Notes: generated from the letters alone by a model not told the origin. A stretch of DNA of 64,000 nucleotides from an uncultured Thermococci archaeon (GCA_964595645.1 CAZQQT010000007.1:72809-136808), one strand, 5' to 3'; counted from the stretch's first letter, positions 22,369 through 55,840 are shown. Made by a program: numbers and translations.

Positions 22369-24158
22369 TGCGAGGCGGATTCGGTCGTAGAATTTCATCG
22401 GGTGATGAAGAAGATTTCTCCTTGAAACAGCTGGATAAACGAGCACTGAAATTTCTATTGAAATATCTCAAAAAACACACGAAGGTCCTATTGATCGCCA
22501 TCGCCTGTATGGTGATAGTCACGTTGGCCAGTCTCGCCGGTCCCTTTTTAATCAAGATAGCCGTTGATGACTACATCATGGAGGGGGATATGGCTGGACT
22601 GAACTGGGTAGTGATACTGATGGTACTCTCGTATGGGATATACTGGCTTTTTTCCTACTTTCAGACCTACCTCTCCAACTGGATAGGGCAGAAGATCGTG
22701 GGAGATATCAGAGAGGATCTTTACCGTCATCTTCAGGAACTCTCCATCGACTTTTTCCACAAGCGCAATACAGGAGACATCATGTCTCGGGTTACCCATG
22801 ATGTGAACGCCCTCTCCGATCTGGTGTCAACAGGGTTTGTCCACCTGCTCAATGATCTCCTCACCGTCACAGGGATTGTGGTAATAATGGTGGTATTAGA
22901 CGTGAAACTGGCCCTGGTAAGTTTCATTACCATCCCCTTCATTTTCTTTGTGGTATACGTTCTTGGCAAAAGGATGAGGAAAGCATACAGAGGAGTCAGA
23001 GAAAAGCTGGCCGAACTAAACGCTGATGTTGAAGAAAATTTATCTGGAATTAGACTGATTCAAGCGTTAAATAGAGAGTCAATAAACACGGGCAAATTCA
23101 GTAGGTTGAGCTGGGAAAATTTAAAGGCAAACCTGAAGGCGGCCTCCTACTTCTCCCTTTTATTCCCAGTAATGAACCTGAGCAAAGTGTTCGGAGAAGC
23201 GTTGGTACTGGGATACGGAGGCTGGGGAATTGTTGAAGGAACCATCTCGTTAGGAGTTGTAATGGCTTTTATGGAATATGTACGGAGATTTTTTGCGCCG
23301 CTGGCTGATTTAAGCCAGGTGTACAATACGTACCAATCTGCCGGTGCGGCCTTAGACCGAATCTATGAGTACACGTCCATCGAACCCACAATTGAAGAGC
23401 CGGAGACCCCCGTATCGCCGGGAACGGATGTAAAGGGACGGATCGAGTTTAACCATGTGACGTTTAATTACGGGAAAGAACCGGTGATCGATGGGTTGAA
23501 CCTGCGGATTGATCCGGGAGAGGTATTGGCCCTGGTAGGTCCTACCGGCGCAGGAAAAACAACGATTGTGAACCTTTTGACAAGACTCTACGATGTGGAT
23601 CACGGTGAAATTTTAATAGATGGAATCAACATAAAACAATACTCTATACACACTCTTCGATCCCTCATTTCAGTTGTGCCCCAGAATATATTCCTTTTTG
23701 ATACCTCCATAAAAAACAATATTCGCTACGGTAAGCCGGGAGCCAGTGACAAGGAGATAGTTGAAATAACCAAACAGGTACAGGCCCATGAGTTCATCAA
23801 GGATTTGCCTAAAGGATATGAGACCCGTGTCGGTGAAGGAGGAGTCAAGCTTTCCGGCGGTCAGAAACAGTTGGTTTCATTCGCCCGGGCAATGCTGGCC
23901 GATCCTACAATACTGATCCTTGATGAAGCCACCTCCAGTGTGGATGCCTACACAGAAGTCCTCATCCAGCGGGCCATGGAAACGTTGTTAAAAGGGAGGA
24001 CGGTACTGATGATCGCCCACCGGTTTGCTACGCTGAATAAGGCAGAGAGAATCGGTGTGGTAGAAAATGGAAGAGTGACCGACACCGGCACTCATGACGA
24101 GCTTATGGAAAGAAACAAGGTGTATCGGGATCTGTATACCACGCAAAAAAGGGGTTAA
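22368..24158 (+). CDS. ABC exporter, fused permease-ATPase, second half of the heterodimer
   Basis: Same architecture (GPTGAGKTT, LSGGQKQ, ILDEATSSVD, AHRF). Its start shares one nucleotide with the upstream stop (TAATG). Confidence 0.85.
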   Translation: MRGGFGRRISSGDEEDFSLKQLDKRALKFLLKYLKKHTKVLLIAIACMVIVTLASLAGPFLIKIAVDDYIMEGDMAGLNWVVILMVLSYGIYWLFSYFQTYLSNWIGQKIVGDIREDLYRHLQELSIDFFHKRNTGDIMSRVTHDVNALSDLVSTGFVHLLNDLLTVTGIVVIMVVLDVKLALVSFITIPFIFFVVYVLGKRMRKAYRGVREKLAELNADVEENLSGIRLIQALNRESINTGKFSRLSWENLKANLKAASYFSLLFPVMNLSKVFGEALVLGYGGWGIVEGTISLGVVMAFMEYVRRFFAPLADLSQVYNTYQSAGAALDRIYEYTSIEPTIEEPETPVSPGTDVKGRIEFNHVTFNYGKEPVIDGLNLRIDPGEVLALVGPTGAGKTTIVNLLTRLYDVDHGEILIDGINIKQYSIHTLRSLISVVPQNIFLFDTSIKNNIRYGKPGASDKEIVEITKQVQAHEFIKDLPKGYETRVGEGGVKLSGGQKQLVSFARAMLADPTILILDEATSSVDAYTEVLIQRAMETLLKGRTVLMIAHRFATLNKAERIGVVENGRVTDTGTHDELMERNKVYRDLYTTQKRG

Positions 24159-24173
24159 AAAATAGAAGATTTC

Positions 24174-24392
24174 TTGAAGAAGGTGGAGAACAGATATAAT
24201 CCGGAAAAAATCCTTGTGTTCGGCAGTAGAGCACGGGACGATCACCTCACTACCAGCGACTATGACGTGGTCACAAGTTTGAAGATATCCCCTTTCTTGA
24301 GAGAATCTCTCAACTCCCCTTCATTCATCATACGATGCATCATATTTCGCTACATGTACGTAGGTTGTAGTTCTCCTAAGTGCCTAGAATAA
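24174..24392 (+). pseudogene. Remnant of a minimal nucleotidyltransferase (MNT) antitoxin gene. Only the first ~35 codons are MNT-like.
   Basis: N-terminus (ILVFGSRARDDHLTTSDYDVV) matches the MNT GS-x9-DxD core. The rest of the ORF is low-complexity with no MNT similarity. Confidence 0.4.
24297..24313. repeat. 17-bp perfect palindrome TTGAGAGAATCTCTCAA
   Basis: Read directly from the sequence. Lies inside the MNT remnant, ~140 nt past the ABC exporter stop. Confidence 0.4.
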
Positions 24393-24437
24393 GAATATAC
24401 CATATTGGAGATATATTTAAATAATACGAAACGCTAG

Positions 24438-24788
24438 ATGTACATGGAGATGGAGAGAAAAATGAAAGAAGTAAAAGAAGTGTCGGAGGCAGTGAAAAGC
24501 ATTCTAGACGAGATGGGAGTCGAATATAGAGAAGTGATGTTATTTGGGAGTAGAGCTACAGATATGTCTGAAAAAGAGAGTGATTGGGACCTTTTGGTGG
24601 TCCTTAAGAATCCTATCAATGCAAAAGAAAAGAAAACCCTGTGGGTTGAGATACATGAAAAATTCCATGAACGGTTCCCCTTTACGTCTATCGACATTAT
24701 CGTAAAAGACGCAGACTCGTTTGAGAGGGAAAAAACAATCGCGAATACCATCTCCAATGAAGTGTATTTGGAAGGAATCCGTATATGA
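24438..24788 (+). CDS. Minimal nucleotidyltransferase (MNT) antitoxin of a HEPN/MNT pair
   Basis: Motif (LFGSRATDMSEKESDWDLLVV). Its stop overlaps the start of the downstream HEPN reading frame (ATGA). Confidence 0.7.
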   Translation: MYMEMERKMKEVKEVSEAVKSILDEMGVEYREVMLFGSRATDMSEKESDWDLLVVLKNPINAKEKKTLWVEIHEKFHERFPFTSIDIIVKDADSFEREKTIANTISNEVYLEGIRI

Positions 24789-25048
24789 AAGAAAAAATAG
24801 TACTCCGTTGGATGGAAAAGGCAAGGAATGATCTGAAAGTTGTCGAGCATTAAATAGGCGTAGACGACGCACCCACAGATATGCTCTTATTTCATTGTCA
24901 GTAAGCCGTTGAGAAATACCTAAAGGCCTACTTGACATGGTGCGATGTCCGAATTAGAAAAACACATGATCTTGAAACTATTCTCTATCACTGTATAGAA
25001 AAGGGTAAAAAATTTTATAGCCGAAAGACTAGAGAAAAAAGGATTTAA
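24785..25048 (+). pseudogene. HEPN-domain toxin gene interrupted by two in-frame TAA codons (at 24851-24853 and 24902-24904)
   Basis: A single frame reads MKEKIVLRWMEKARNDLKVVEH*IGVDDAPTDMLLFHCQ*AVEKYLKAYLTWCDVRIRKTHDLETILYHCIEKG.... This matches the HEPN helix pattern (..FHCQQAVEKyLKA.L) with stops replacing expected Q/L codons. Confidence 0.6.
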
Positions 25049-25218
25049 AGGTACTAAAAATAATGAATAGAACGAGAAGATTACTATATAATATTATTTA
25101 TTTCAAAAAGCGTTGAAAACGCACCAAGGCTCTGTATATCAAGACCCTGGTACCTGTAAGTGTACTATTCTGTGATCGGAAAGGAAAACATATTTAACGA
25201 TATACCCACAAAGAGGGT

Positions 25219-26263: not shown

Positions 26264-26518
26264 ATGAAATCAGTAGATATTCCTGAGGATGTACTAGCCT
26301 CAATAAAAATACCGGAAGAAGATATGGAGAAAGTGTTAAAGGTAGAGTTGGCGATAGCTCTTTATCAGCGGGGTATTATTTCACTAGGAAAAGCAAGAAA
26401 AATGGCAGAAATGGACAAATGGGAGTTTTTGGAGGAACTTGGCAAACGAAAAATTTCGCCTCACTACACAGAGAAAGAATTGAAGGAGGATATAAACTTT
26501 GCTAGAGGTAATAAGTAA
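26264..26518 (+). CDS. UPF0175-family small protein, putative antitoxin partner of DUF3368
   Basis: 84-aa ORF (..VELAIALYQRGIISLGKARKMAEMDKWEFLEELGKRKI..) immediately upstream of, and overlapping, a DUF3368 PIN-like gene. Confidence 0.5.
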   Translation: MKSVDIPEDVLASIKIPEEDMEKVLKVELAIALYQRGIISLGKARKMAEMDKWEFLEELGKRKISPHYTEKELKEDINFARGNK

Positions 26519-26986
26519 CTCATCGCCGCTCATCCATCTTGCGAAAATAGGAAGATTAAATCTATTATCATGCTTTTTTGATGGAGTAGTTATTCCTGAA
26601 GCAGTATATAGAGAATGTGTTGTTGAAGGGGAAGATAAAAAGGACGCAAAAAGGATTAAAATGGCGGAATGGATTAGTGTAGAAAAAATAAGAAATAAAG
26701 AGCTAAAAAAAGCATTTATGATGATTTTAGATGAGGGAGAAGCAGAAACAATTGTACTAGCGCTGGAAAAGTCTGCCGATCTTCTCCTCCTAGATGAATA
26801 TGAAGCAAGAAAAGTGGCAAGAACCTACAACTTACCTATTACGGGACCATTGGTATACTGCTAAAGGCAACGTATGGAGGAAAAATACCAACACTGAAGA
26901 ATGAATTGGACAATTTAAGAGGTACGGGTTTCTGGTTGCATGAAGAATTATATAAGAAAATATTGAGAAAAGTAGACGAATTATAA
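26499..26986 (+). pseudogene. DUF3368 PIN-like nuclease gene with a -1 frameshift near 26845
   Basis: Frame 1 gives ...ARKVARTYNLPITGPLVYC*. The conserved C-terminus (LLKATYGGKIPTLKNELDNLRGTGFWLHEELYKKILRKVDEL) continues in the +1 frame. One missing A in GGA(A)CC would restore ITGTIGILLKA. Confidence 0.5.
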
Positions 26987-27003
26987 ATTTAAAACCTCTA
27001 TTC

Positions 27004-28184
27004 TTAGATCTCCGGTTTCGCTTTATACTTGAACTGTTTCTCGTACAGCTGCTCCGCCCGTTCCAGGGTATCCGCATCCTCCGGTGACTTATCGTACCGA
27101 ATACTCGTGATCCGCGCAAACCGGAGCATACCCTGACTCGTACTGCGGACTCTGCTGGATCTCATTAAACGCGACTTCCACCACAAGCTCGGGCCGAACG
27201 TAGACCGTGTACGCATCTTCATCCCGTTTCAACTCCAGCAACGTCTCCGTGAGCTCCTGGAACTGGGCGTCCGTGGGCCCCTTGAAGGTTTTCCCAGCAT
27301 ATGCCCCTTCCGGGTGGCGAGATGGTAGTTGCTCAACCAGTTCTTCCTGCGTCCATGGCCCCACTCCGCCGCGATGATGAGGAGATCCAGGGTCTCGGTG
27401 GGCTTGATCTTTTTCCACGTTTTCTCGCGTTTTCCCGGAATATACGGGCTGTCCAGCTCCTTCACCATCACTCCCTCGTGGCCGGCACTGATCGCCTCCT
27501 CCAGAAAATGACGAGTCTCCTCCTTCTCGTCGGTGATAATCCTCTTTACCATGAAGGATCCGGCGAACTCGCTGAGGAATTCCGTCCGTTTTCTATACAG
27601 TTCATCGAGGAGCGTCTCGCCATTCAAATAGAGAAGATCGAAGAGGTAGAGCTTCAGCGGAATCTCCTCGGTAGCCGCCATCACATCATGGATGCGCCGA
27701 AACCGTCGGAGGAGCTCCTGGAAGGGTAACGGTTTTCCGTCTTTCTCCGCGACGACCTCGAGAACGATCCCCTCGCTGGCACCGATTCGCATCTCTCCAA
27801 AGATCGTCTTCACGATGTGGTCTGCTCCAGCACGGAGGCCTGGCTGAGAAGGCTGGCCACAATCTGCTCCTTCCGTTTCCGCTGCGAGGTGCGCGCGATC
27901 TTGCGGAAGTACTCGGACACATCCGTGATAGTCAGCTCCTGGTCGATCAGGGTTTCCTGGTGTTTTTCCCGTGCCTTCTGGACCGTGTTCCACGAGACAT
28001 CCAGTGTCGTGCTCGACGACTCGGGAAATATCTGGCCGGTGATGAGGAGGACGGCCGGCGCGATCTCATCCTCATTCAACTGCTGCAGAAACGTAGCGAG
28101 GTACTGAATTTTCTCCAGCCGCTTTGTGGTGGACGCCACCCGCTCACAACACGCTGCCAGCGCCCGGAACTTCATGATATCCAC
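27004..28184 (-). pseudogene. Relic of an ATP-dependent DNA ligase. The N-terminal DNA-binding-domain fragment is intact. Most of the DBD and adenylation motif I are deleted. Motifs III-VI and the OB/C-terminus survive across three frames.
   Basis: Fragments: DBD (MDIMKFRALAACCERVASTTKRLEKIQYLATFL..LLITGQIFPE). Motif III-IV (EGIVLEVVAEKDGKPLPFQELLRR, LYLFDLLYLNGETL). Motif V (EGVMVKELDSPYIPGKREKTWKKIKP). OB (LDLLIIAAEWGHGRRKNWLSNYHLA). C-terminus in other frames (PELVVEVAFNEIQQSPQYESGYA; LRFARITSIRYDKSPEDADTLE). Total span ~1.2 kb versus ~1.7 kb for an intact archaeal ligase. Confidence 0.6.
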
Positions 28185-55326: not shown

Positions 55327-55453
55327 ATAGAGAAATAAAGAGCATGCATAAAAACCGCATTCTTGTTACCAATATCCTGAATTACATTATCGGTATCCTT
55401 TTCCTCGTTTAAAAGCTCTCTCAATCTATACAGTACCTTCTTCAACAAAATAC

Positions 55454-55642
55454 TCAAATCGATGATCCCCCCCCTCTCAGTCGATACAAATCGTGTTTCT
55501 TCCCCTTTACTTTTTTTATATCTGCTCCACTTCTCGACGTATAGGGATCGTTCATGAGCTCTTTTAATCGTTCTTTGAGCCTCTCCTTCTCATTGGTTCT
55601 ATCAAGATACGTTTTTACTCGTGGATGTACCCGTATCTCCAT
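55454..55642 (-). pseudogene. RelE/ParE-like toxin gene truncated at a C8/G8 homopolymer (55467..55474)
   Basis: N-terminal 55 aa are RelE-like (MEIRVHPRVKTYLDRTNEKERLKERLKELMNDPY...KKVKGKKHDLYRLR), then GGGSSI*. Removing one G gives ...LYRLRGGDHRFEYFVEEGTV, closer to the RelE core (RvGdyRiiY). Confidence 0.4.
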
Positions 55643-55840
55643 TCATATCTCATCCAAAGGTATATACGTCTCTTTCTCCTTTTGAAGTCGTTCCCACCGT
55701 GCTTCGATTAGATCTTCGACATTAATATCCTCACAGTACTTCATCAATCGATTAATAATATCATCATAAGTTTCTCCTTTATATCCAAATCGTTTTAATT
55801 TCTCCCTCGTGTTCTTTTTAATCTGGATAGTAGTCGCCAT
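55643..55840 (-). CDS. Archaeal RelB-like antitoxin (65 aa)
   Basis: MATTIQIKKNTREKLKRFGYKGETYDDIINRLM.. resembles short archaeal RelB/RHH-type antitoxins. Directly upstream of, and abutting, the RelE-like gene. Confidence 0.4.
   Translation of the reverse strand: MATTIQIKKNTREKLKRFGYKGETYDDIINRLMKYCEDINVEDLIEARWERLQKEKETYIPLDEI

Follow-up and report, generated by a model that had tools for sequence, protein, structure and literature searches.

The locus and its surroundings

The window analysed here is a stretch of 64,000 nucleotides, and the locus of interest within it is a spacer of 1.06 kb between the genes of an ABC exporter and a metallophosphoesterase. The spacer houses a fragment of a minimal nucleotidyltransferase (MNT) gene, an intact MNT gene preceded by a TATA-box-like element, and a HEPN pseudogene that overlaps the end of the intact MNT gene (Table 1). 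The GC content of the spacer (34-40%) is low against that of its flanks (47-58%: 47% in the ABC gene, 56-58% in the metallophosphoesterase and other core genes), which points to horizontally acquired DNA. Upstream lie HsdR, the R subunit of a type I restriction enzyme, and ABC transporters; downstream follow the metallophosphoesterase, a UPF0175/DUF3368 pair, DNA ligase, FEN1 and glutamine synthetase. HsdR and the toxin-antitoxin remnants further along give this region the look of a defence or mobile-gene island. No tRNA or Rfam family was detected within the 64-kb window. Two antisense open reading frames (ORFs), at 24434-24850 and 24540-24938, lack any Pfam match and were taken as spurious.

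The neighbourhood is partly common to related loci: L001 has the ligase and FEN1, and L002 has a metallophosphoesterase and GlnA. The GlnA of L002 is 66% identical to that of the window. The FEN1 proteins of the window and L001 share 71% identity, and the nearest named relatives of the window FEN1 are in Theionarchaea (65%) and Methanofastidiosia (64%) MAGs, which places the host as an uncultured archaeon in that part of the tree. A contig scan with FEN1 returned three loci of 42-45% identity in Thermoproteota, with no useful synteny, and an exact-sequence look-up of the intact MNT (with two starts), the metallophosphoesterase and FEN1 in a contig index returned no record. In the window as in L002, a metallophosphoesterase gene adjoins the MNT/HEPN module, on its downstream side in the former and on its upstream side in the latter (L002:1321-2160); the two proteins share only 25% identity, and the species-representative genome collection contains no close relative of the 338-aa window protein. 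The ATP-dependent DNA ligase next to FEN1 looks like a pseudogene in its own right: its frame segments hold N-terminal, adenylation and C-terminal domains, and the adenylation domain lacks roughly its first 50-78 positions, the part expected to include the KxDG active-site lysine. L001 likewise has only a 186-aa ligase fragment beside FEN1.

Table 1. Features of the window discussed in the text (positions counted from the first nucleotide of the window; aa, amino acids)
Feature	Position	Strand or frame	Remarks
HsdR, 1004 aa	13565-16579	+	PF18766 SWI2_SNF2, E 2e-83; PF04313 HSDR_N, E 1e-38
MNT 1 remnant (stub)	24159-24343	+	Putative antitoxin of a HEPN-then-MNT type module
TATA-box-like element ATATATTTAAATAAT	24412-24426	+	~36-50 nt 5' of the MNT 2 start codons
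MNT 2, intact nucleotidyltransferase, putative antitoxin	24438-24788	+	116-codon ORF
HEPN pseudogene (PF05168/COG2250 type)	24785-25070	+	Overlaps MNT 2 stop by ATGA
HEPN head, codons 1-77	24785-25015	+	
In-frame TAA, HEPN codon 23	24851-24853	+	Leu in homologues (TTA in L001, CTA in L002)
In-frame TAA, HEPN codon 40	24902-24904	+	Nearly invariant Gln (CAA) in homologues; TAG in independent locus L023
Junction of 134-nt deletion	25005-25015	+	Microhomology GTAAAAAATTT
HEPN tail, last 21 codons and ancestral TAG	25005-25070	+1 frame	
Metallophosphoesterase, 338 aa	25219-26235	+	Directly downstream of the module
UPF0175 antitoxin, intact	26264-26518	+	PF03683, E 4e-28
PIN-like DUF3368 partner, frameshifted	26499-26986	+	PF11848, E 1e-14 across the junction (reconstructed protein)
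ATP-dependent DNA ligase, apparent pseudogene	26990-28175	-	At least four frame segments
ParE/RelE-family toxin frame	38565 down to 38313	-	PF05016, E 2e-8; stops TAA 38487 and TGA 38478
Putative antitoxin ORF, 61 aa	38567-38752	-	In a 960-nt AT-rich gap, 36% GC
RelE-like frame (tentative)	within 55389-55840	-	After the DUF7557 ORF
DUF7557 antitoxin-like ORF	55643-55840	-	E 8e-12; in a 609-nt AT-rich gap, 35% GC

A HEPN gene disabled by three lesions

The frame that opens at 24785 translates as MKEKIVLRWMEKARNDLKVVEH*IGVDDAPTDMLLFHCQ*AVEKYLKAYLTWCDVRIRKTHDLETILYHCIEKGKKFYSRKTREKRI* (asterisks mark stops), the two internal stops standing in the context MKEKIVLRWMEKARNDLKVVEH*IGVDD...FHCQ*AVEKYLKAYL.... 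Read with X at both stops, it matches PF05168 with E 5.2e-12 and 46.4 bits (cut-off 22), and covers only positions 3-74 of the 117 in that profile. A search of 5.8 billion proteins retrieved 19 HEPN proteins, the closest intact homologue being a metagenomic protein of 127 aa (P0001; 82% identical, E 3e-31). An alignment of 17 homologues places Leu at the first stop and a nearly invariant Gln at the second, and the nearest locus, L001, has TTA and CAA at the two sites. The Rx4H motif is present as R56-I-R-K-T-H61, its Arg and His being conserved across the 17 aligned homologues. The profile match, the alignment, the codons of L001 and the motif together make the observation real and far beyond chance. 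The original prediction, of a HEPN frame that overlaps an intact MNT gene and runs through two TAA codons where homologues have Leu and Gln, is thereby confirmed in each of these points: the ORF table and translation give an unbroken MNT, the genes overlap at 24785, and the stops lie at 24851 and 24902.

The third lesion is a deletion. Past F77 the window frame departs from every aligned homologue, and it is the +1 frame that reads VKNFIAERLEKKGFKGTKNNE*, similar to homologue C-termini such as KVKKFVVKRLKKKGYKDIL in P0001, and that ends at the ancestral HEPN stop, a TAG at 25068-70. DNA alignment to L001 and L002 follows the head of the gene up to 25015 and the tail from 25005; in place of the 11 nt common to head and tail, L001 and L002 each have two direct repeats, at a distance of exactly 134 nt in either locus. 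The repeats bounding the deletion read TAAAAAATTT, the two copies in L001 and L002 being TAAAAA(A)TTT, and the deletion was apparently mediated by microhomology, or slippage, between these short direct repeats. It takes out ~44 codons (...LSKLTIYATAIRYPEE...), including the conserved RYPEE segment, and so a third of the HEPN domain, and shifts the frame by 2. Because of this shift, the last 11 codons of the frame as it was first read (25016-25048) are out-of-frame read-through. Nowhere does a single uninterrupted frame hold the complete domain of a functional member: the HEPN gene is a pseudogene with three independent disabling lesions, two TAA codons and a frameshifting deletion of 134 nt. 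The proposal that the toxin had been inactivated by nonsense mutation is correct as to both TAA codons; that these were the whole of the damage is not.

Could the stops be read through? Programmed recoding, in which TAA is read through or reassigned to give full-length HEPN at a low, regulated level, would fit the location of the stops at sense positions of the homologues, and in-frame stops do recur in the HEPN genes of relatives. However, of the window's 52 long open frames 14 end in TAA, that of the neighbouring ABC gene among them, and the stops in relatives are TAG, TGA or TAA at varied codons, mixed with frameshifts and deletions. Even under read-through, moreover, the frameshifting deletion would cost the protein a third of its domain. 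Given that TAA serves as an ordinary stop, that the window has neither a tRNA nor an Rfam element and that the deletion shifts the frame, recoding can be taken as excluded, and both reassignment and read-through were rejected.

An artefact of sequencing, assembly or binning would instead leave the true genome with an intact HEPN gene, the stops and the deletion being errors or a chimeric consensus. The window does probably derive from a MAG (the identical FEN1, P0100, is recorded only on NCBI/Logan contigs), and the nearest named relatives of its FEN1 are MAGs as well. Against an artefact, three lesions of different kinds and three radical missense changes are confined to one gene of 400 nt, whereas the overlapping MNT and the flanking genes of 596 and 338 aa are clean and the window is otherwise dense with long uninterrupted ORFs. 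In addition, the 11-nt repeat is too short for assembly collapse, and the independent assemblies of relatives carry the same class of lesion. An artefact is therefore very improbable.

The intact MNT gene and its upstream element

The stop codon of MNT 2, a TGA, overlaps the HEPN ATG in the sequence ATGA (24785-24788), an arrangement also found in L001 and L002. The likely start of MNT 2 is at 24450 or 24462, both ATG codons preceded by GGAG. The catalytic GS...DxD motif is retained (FGSRATDMSEKESDWD; FGS...DWD), and the protein matches PF18765 (36.9 bits, cut-off 26.9, E 4e-9) and PF01909 (32.9 bits, cut-off 21, E 9e-8), as well as the PADLOC candidate family PDC-S09 (E 9e-11). The NCBIfam MntA equivalog NF047752 scores 30.4 bits, under its cut-off of 60, so that MNT 2 is an MNT, yet by NF047752 not an MntA of the HepT/MntA type. 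The core TATTTAAATAAT of the TATA-box-like element recurs 5' of the MNT gene in L006, L008, L011 and L012 when the upstream regions are aligned. The element ATATATTTAAATAAT is accordingly named here as a putative promoter of the MNT 2/HEPN pair (module 2), and the orphan MNT may still be expressed.

Comparison with L001 gives an indication of when the HEPN gene was lost. At the nucleotide level, the first 231 nt of HEPN are 85% identical to L001, and MNT 2 is 86% identical; dN/dS is 0.07 for the HEPN head, at a dS of 0.86 (75 comparable codons), and 0.16 for MNT 2. Such a low ratio at such a dS implies that HEPN was under purifying selection over most of the divergence, and hence that its inactivation is recent. 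Changes in both genes were assigned to branches with five or six outgroups. Those of HEPN on the window branch are L23*, Q40*, N68Y, L69H and D74G, the last three being radical and at positions almost invariant in the family, as against four conservative changes on the L001 branch. The replacements in MNT 2 are symmetric, with six on the window branch and six on the L001 branch, mostly conservative.

A remnant of a second module

The upstream stub begins one codon past the TAA of the ABC exporter and in the same frame. It is without a proper start codon, ~4-8 N-terminal codons and ~30-45 C-terminal codons, and is frameshifted near 24272, after SDYDVV, the other frame continuing as KFEDIPFLERISQL. 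The stub matches PF01909 with E 3e-6 and 28 bits (cut-off 21), with FGS...DYD present, and a family profile made from its top hits aligns over positions 5-45 (E 1e-19) and, in the other frame, 49-72 (E 3e-4), of 103. An exhaustive HMMER search with the spliced stub found 80 MNT proteins (best E 9e-11), the alignments crossing the splice; a word-indexed protein search with the reconstructed stub gave no match.

The stub had been described as a truncated duplicate of the intact MNT, extending from 24174. Its MNT identity and its truncation stand; the ORF noted at 24174 is open back to 24159, and the frameshift is an addition. A recent duplication was rejected, as the stub shares 25% identity with MNT 2 and belongs to a different MNT subfamily. 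In L047 and L048, the two closest relatives of the stub among those with contigs retrieved, a PF05168 HEPN gene lies 5' of the MNT gene and overlaps its start. The identity of 25% and this order, HEPN then MNT, mark the stub as the remnant of a second, independent module. A HEPN remnant to go with it was sought in every frame of 24080-24480 and none was detected.

Repeated loss of the HEPN gene in related loci

A metagenome scan with the MNT 2 protein returned 41 loci. Loci were merged into one lineage where the final 270 nt of their MNT genes were 97% identical or more, and a lineage was kept if its MNT ORF was complete and followed by 400 nt or more, giving 25 with the window, L001 and L002 included. 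The HEPN gene is intact in 10 of these independent lineages (L001, L002, L006, L007-10, L013, L015, L017, L021, L027, L037/38), disrupted in 10 and deleted in 5, so that a complete MNT stands beside a dead or missing HEPN in 15 of the 25 (60%). Intact copies, suggested earlier as something to look for in relatives, thus exist, L001 and L002 being examples; and the view of toxin-first decay as a typical route agrees with the 15 lineages in which only the MNT is whole.

The disruptions are varied. Nonsense codons occur in L023 (6426; Q40*, a TAG at the same codon as the second stop of the window), L024 (1126; W52*, TAG), L028 (811; W9*, TGA) and L031 (6447; K47*, TAG). Frameshifts are found in L030/L039 and in L016, a deletion plus frameshift in L014, an internal deletion in L026 and an in-frame loss of ~75 residues, including Rx4H, in L034/36; the window is the tenth. 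L030/L039 lacks K47* even though its MNT is 97% identical to that of L031, so its lesion is an independent hit. Among the five deletions, up to 15 N-terminal HEPN codons are left in L012, L019 and L032, and no HEPN remnant was seen in L018 or L022; near-complete deletions across all the relatives leave 8-17 such codons. As the HEPN lesion is different in every lineage, the losses are independent and recent.

The MNT genes of these loci have fared otherwise: none carries a nonsense codon and the only frameshift is in L042/43. In L044-L046, which are late remnants, the MNT too is fragmentary, and L044 is a further locus with a disabled HEPN gene. Between loci without a working toxin, dN/dS of MNT is 0.12-0.48, values that, with every lesion independent, do not allow the time before toxin loss to be told apart from the time after it.

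Other broken toxin genes in the window

Besides HEPN, two and possibly three toxin genes of the window are broken next to intact antitoxins. In the PIN-like partner of the UPF0175 antitoxin, 1 nt has been lost near 26840 (ACGGGACCATT against the expected ACGGGAACCATT); the first frame ends at 26864 and the DUF3368 C-terminal domain runs on in another frame to 26986. The ParE/RelE-family frame that follows the 61-aa ORF has two in-frame stops (Table 1). The RelE-like frame (...KKHDLYRLR / GDHRFEYFVEEGTV*IERAFKRGKGY) has two lesions, a frameshift in a G8 run near 55465 and an in-frame TAG at 55428. This last toxin frame has no Pfam match, for which reason the RelE-like reading is tentative, and 55389-55840 may be a fourth toxin-antitoxin pair.

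The tally for the window is 8 lesions in four toxin genes and 0 in antitoxins (length-weighted P ~0.015). If the first lesion of each toxin is set aside, it becomes 4 against 0 (P ~0.12). For module 2 alone, the chance that three lesions spread over two genes of similar size would all miss the MNT is ~0.1.

Such an imbalance might mean that the orphan MNT is selected for a role of its own, whether in anti-addiction or immunity against HEPN toxins that arrive with mobile elements and viruses, or as a regulator. Several observations would suit this: the ORF is intact, with its catalytic motif and the conserved TATA-like element upstream; replacements are not in excess on the window branch; the MNT is complete beside a dead or missing HEPN in those 15 of 25 lineages; and none of the window's four antitoxin ORFs is broken, as against the 8 toxin lesions. 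Orphan antitoxins are, furthermore, common, and those of Klebsiella have been proposed to serve in anti-addiction (PMC7192599). However, a toxin can be lost at any time, whereas its antitoxin cannot be lost while the toxin works, so that decay beginning with the toxin is the expected route and some asymmetry is expected anyway. The count with first lesions removed is non-significant, the low dN/dS of MNT mostly reflects the time before recent, independent toxin losses, and late remnants with a decayed MNT do exist (the window stub, L042-L046). Given the obligatory order and the non-significant remainder, retention of the MNT needs no function of its own, and an intact MNT ORF does not prove MNT function. 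Selection for a separate role is thus rather doubtful. A degree more doubtful still is the broader idea that toxin loss in this lineage is systematic and selected, with orphan MNTs kept as immunity against the HEPN toxins of mobile elements or viruses; it starts from the three, possibly four, toxins of the window disabled beside an intact antitoxin ORF (HEPN, DUF3368/PIN, ParE-like and, tentatively, RelE-like) and from the 60% of lineages in the MNT clade with a dead or deleted HEPN.

A model for the decay of the two modules

The spacer is best explained as the decayed remains of two HEPN/MNT toxin-antitoxin modules, the toxin of module 2 being dead and its antitoxin ORF whole (probability about 0.9). 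The decaying cluster with a retained antitoxin ORF that the original prediction described is in this respect upheld by profile searches, homologue alignments and related loci. Two modules would have been acquired horizontally and would now be at different stages of decay. In module 2 (MNT then HEPN), a HEPN toxin of the RNase type with an Rx4H motif would once have been kept harmless by the MNT nucleotidyltransferase. The HEPN gene is now dead through a change of TTA to TAA in codon 23, another of CAA to TAA in codon 40, and the frameshifting loss of 134 nt by slippage or microhomology; the MNT persists as an unbroken ORF downstream of the conserved TATA-like element. Module 1 (HEPN then MNT) would represent a later stage of decay: HEPN and the first MNT codons were presumably deleted flush with the ABC stop codon, and what remained of the MNT would then be the frameshifted, 3'-truncated stub.

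The repeated loss of HEPN with the MNT kept whole supports, indirectly, the assignment of HEPN as toxin and MNT as antitoxin in the COG2250 subfamily, roles that remain predicted for the genes described here. A fitting annotation of the locus is a HEPN pseudogene, an orphan MNT and an MNT fragment; it is neither a working toxin-antitoxin system nor evidence of recoding. The repeated independent HEPN losses also show a rapid turnover of these archaeal modules, which are very abundant, a point of modest interest.

Comparison with known systems

'Thermophile-type' HEPN/MNT modules, which combine COG2250/PF05168 with a minimal nucleotidyltransferase, are predicted toxin-antitoxin systems of archaea and thermophilic bacteria (PMC2701414, PMC3710099). 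The window modules resemble them in having the same two domains, a tight gene overlap, Rx4H and small genes, in forming a mobile AT-rich insert in an archaeal chromosome, and in that both gene orders occur. They differ in that the HEPN gene here is a pseudogene with three lesions and the second module is an MNT fragment only. The literature searched contained no experimental test of the toxicity of COG2250-type HEPN proteins or of their neutralisation by MNT, and neither the HEPN family profile nor the MNT had a PDB sequence match at E <=0.01. The polarity of HEPN and MNT was originally guessed to be the opposite by Makarova et al. 2009 (PMC2701414); later work on HepT/MntA established HEPN as the toxin (PMC4621449, PMC7641770).

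As in type VII HepT/MntA and in the HEPN-MNT of Legionella (PMC7641770, PMC11586414), the gene of an MNT-fold enzyme adjoins that of a HEPN RNase-fold protein. By analogy, the window module probably worked in the same way as type VII HepT/MntA, a nucleotidyltransferase neutralising a HEPN toxin. By the tests run here, it is nevertheless not a member of the HepT/MntA family. HepT belongs to the DUF86 (PF01934) branch, and its AMPylated Tyr lies two residues after the motif His. For the window HEPN, in contrast, PF05168 is the sole Pfam family past the cut-off, with no DUF86 match at E <=1, and a counterpart of the Tyr is absent (H61-D-L). Likewise, MNT 2 differs from MntA in its score against NF047752 (30.4 bits against the 60-bit cut-off).

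Cases of a toxin pseudogene beside a retained antitoxin are already well known, and a single such locus is routine. In the Klebsiella pneumoniae complex, orphan antitoxins and degrading toxin-antitoxin pairs have been described (Horesh et al. 2020, PMC7192599). The window shares with these the antitoxin ORF that is kept by a disrupted or missing toxin in its original genomic context. Unlike the Klebsiella case, the antitoxin here is an archaeal and enzymatic one, an MNT, and the comparison extends across metagenomic lineages rather than the strains of one species.
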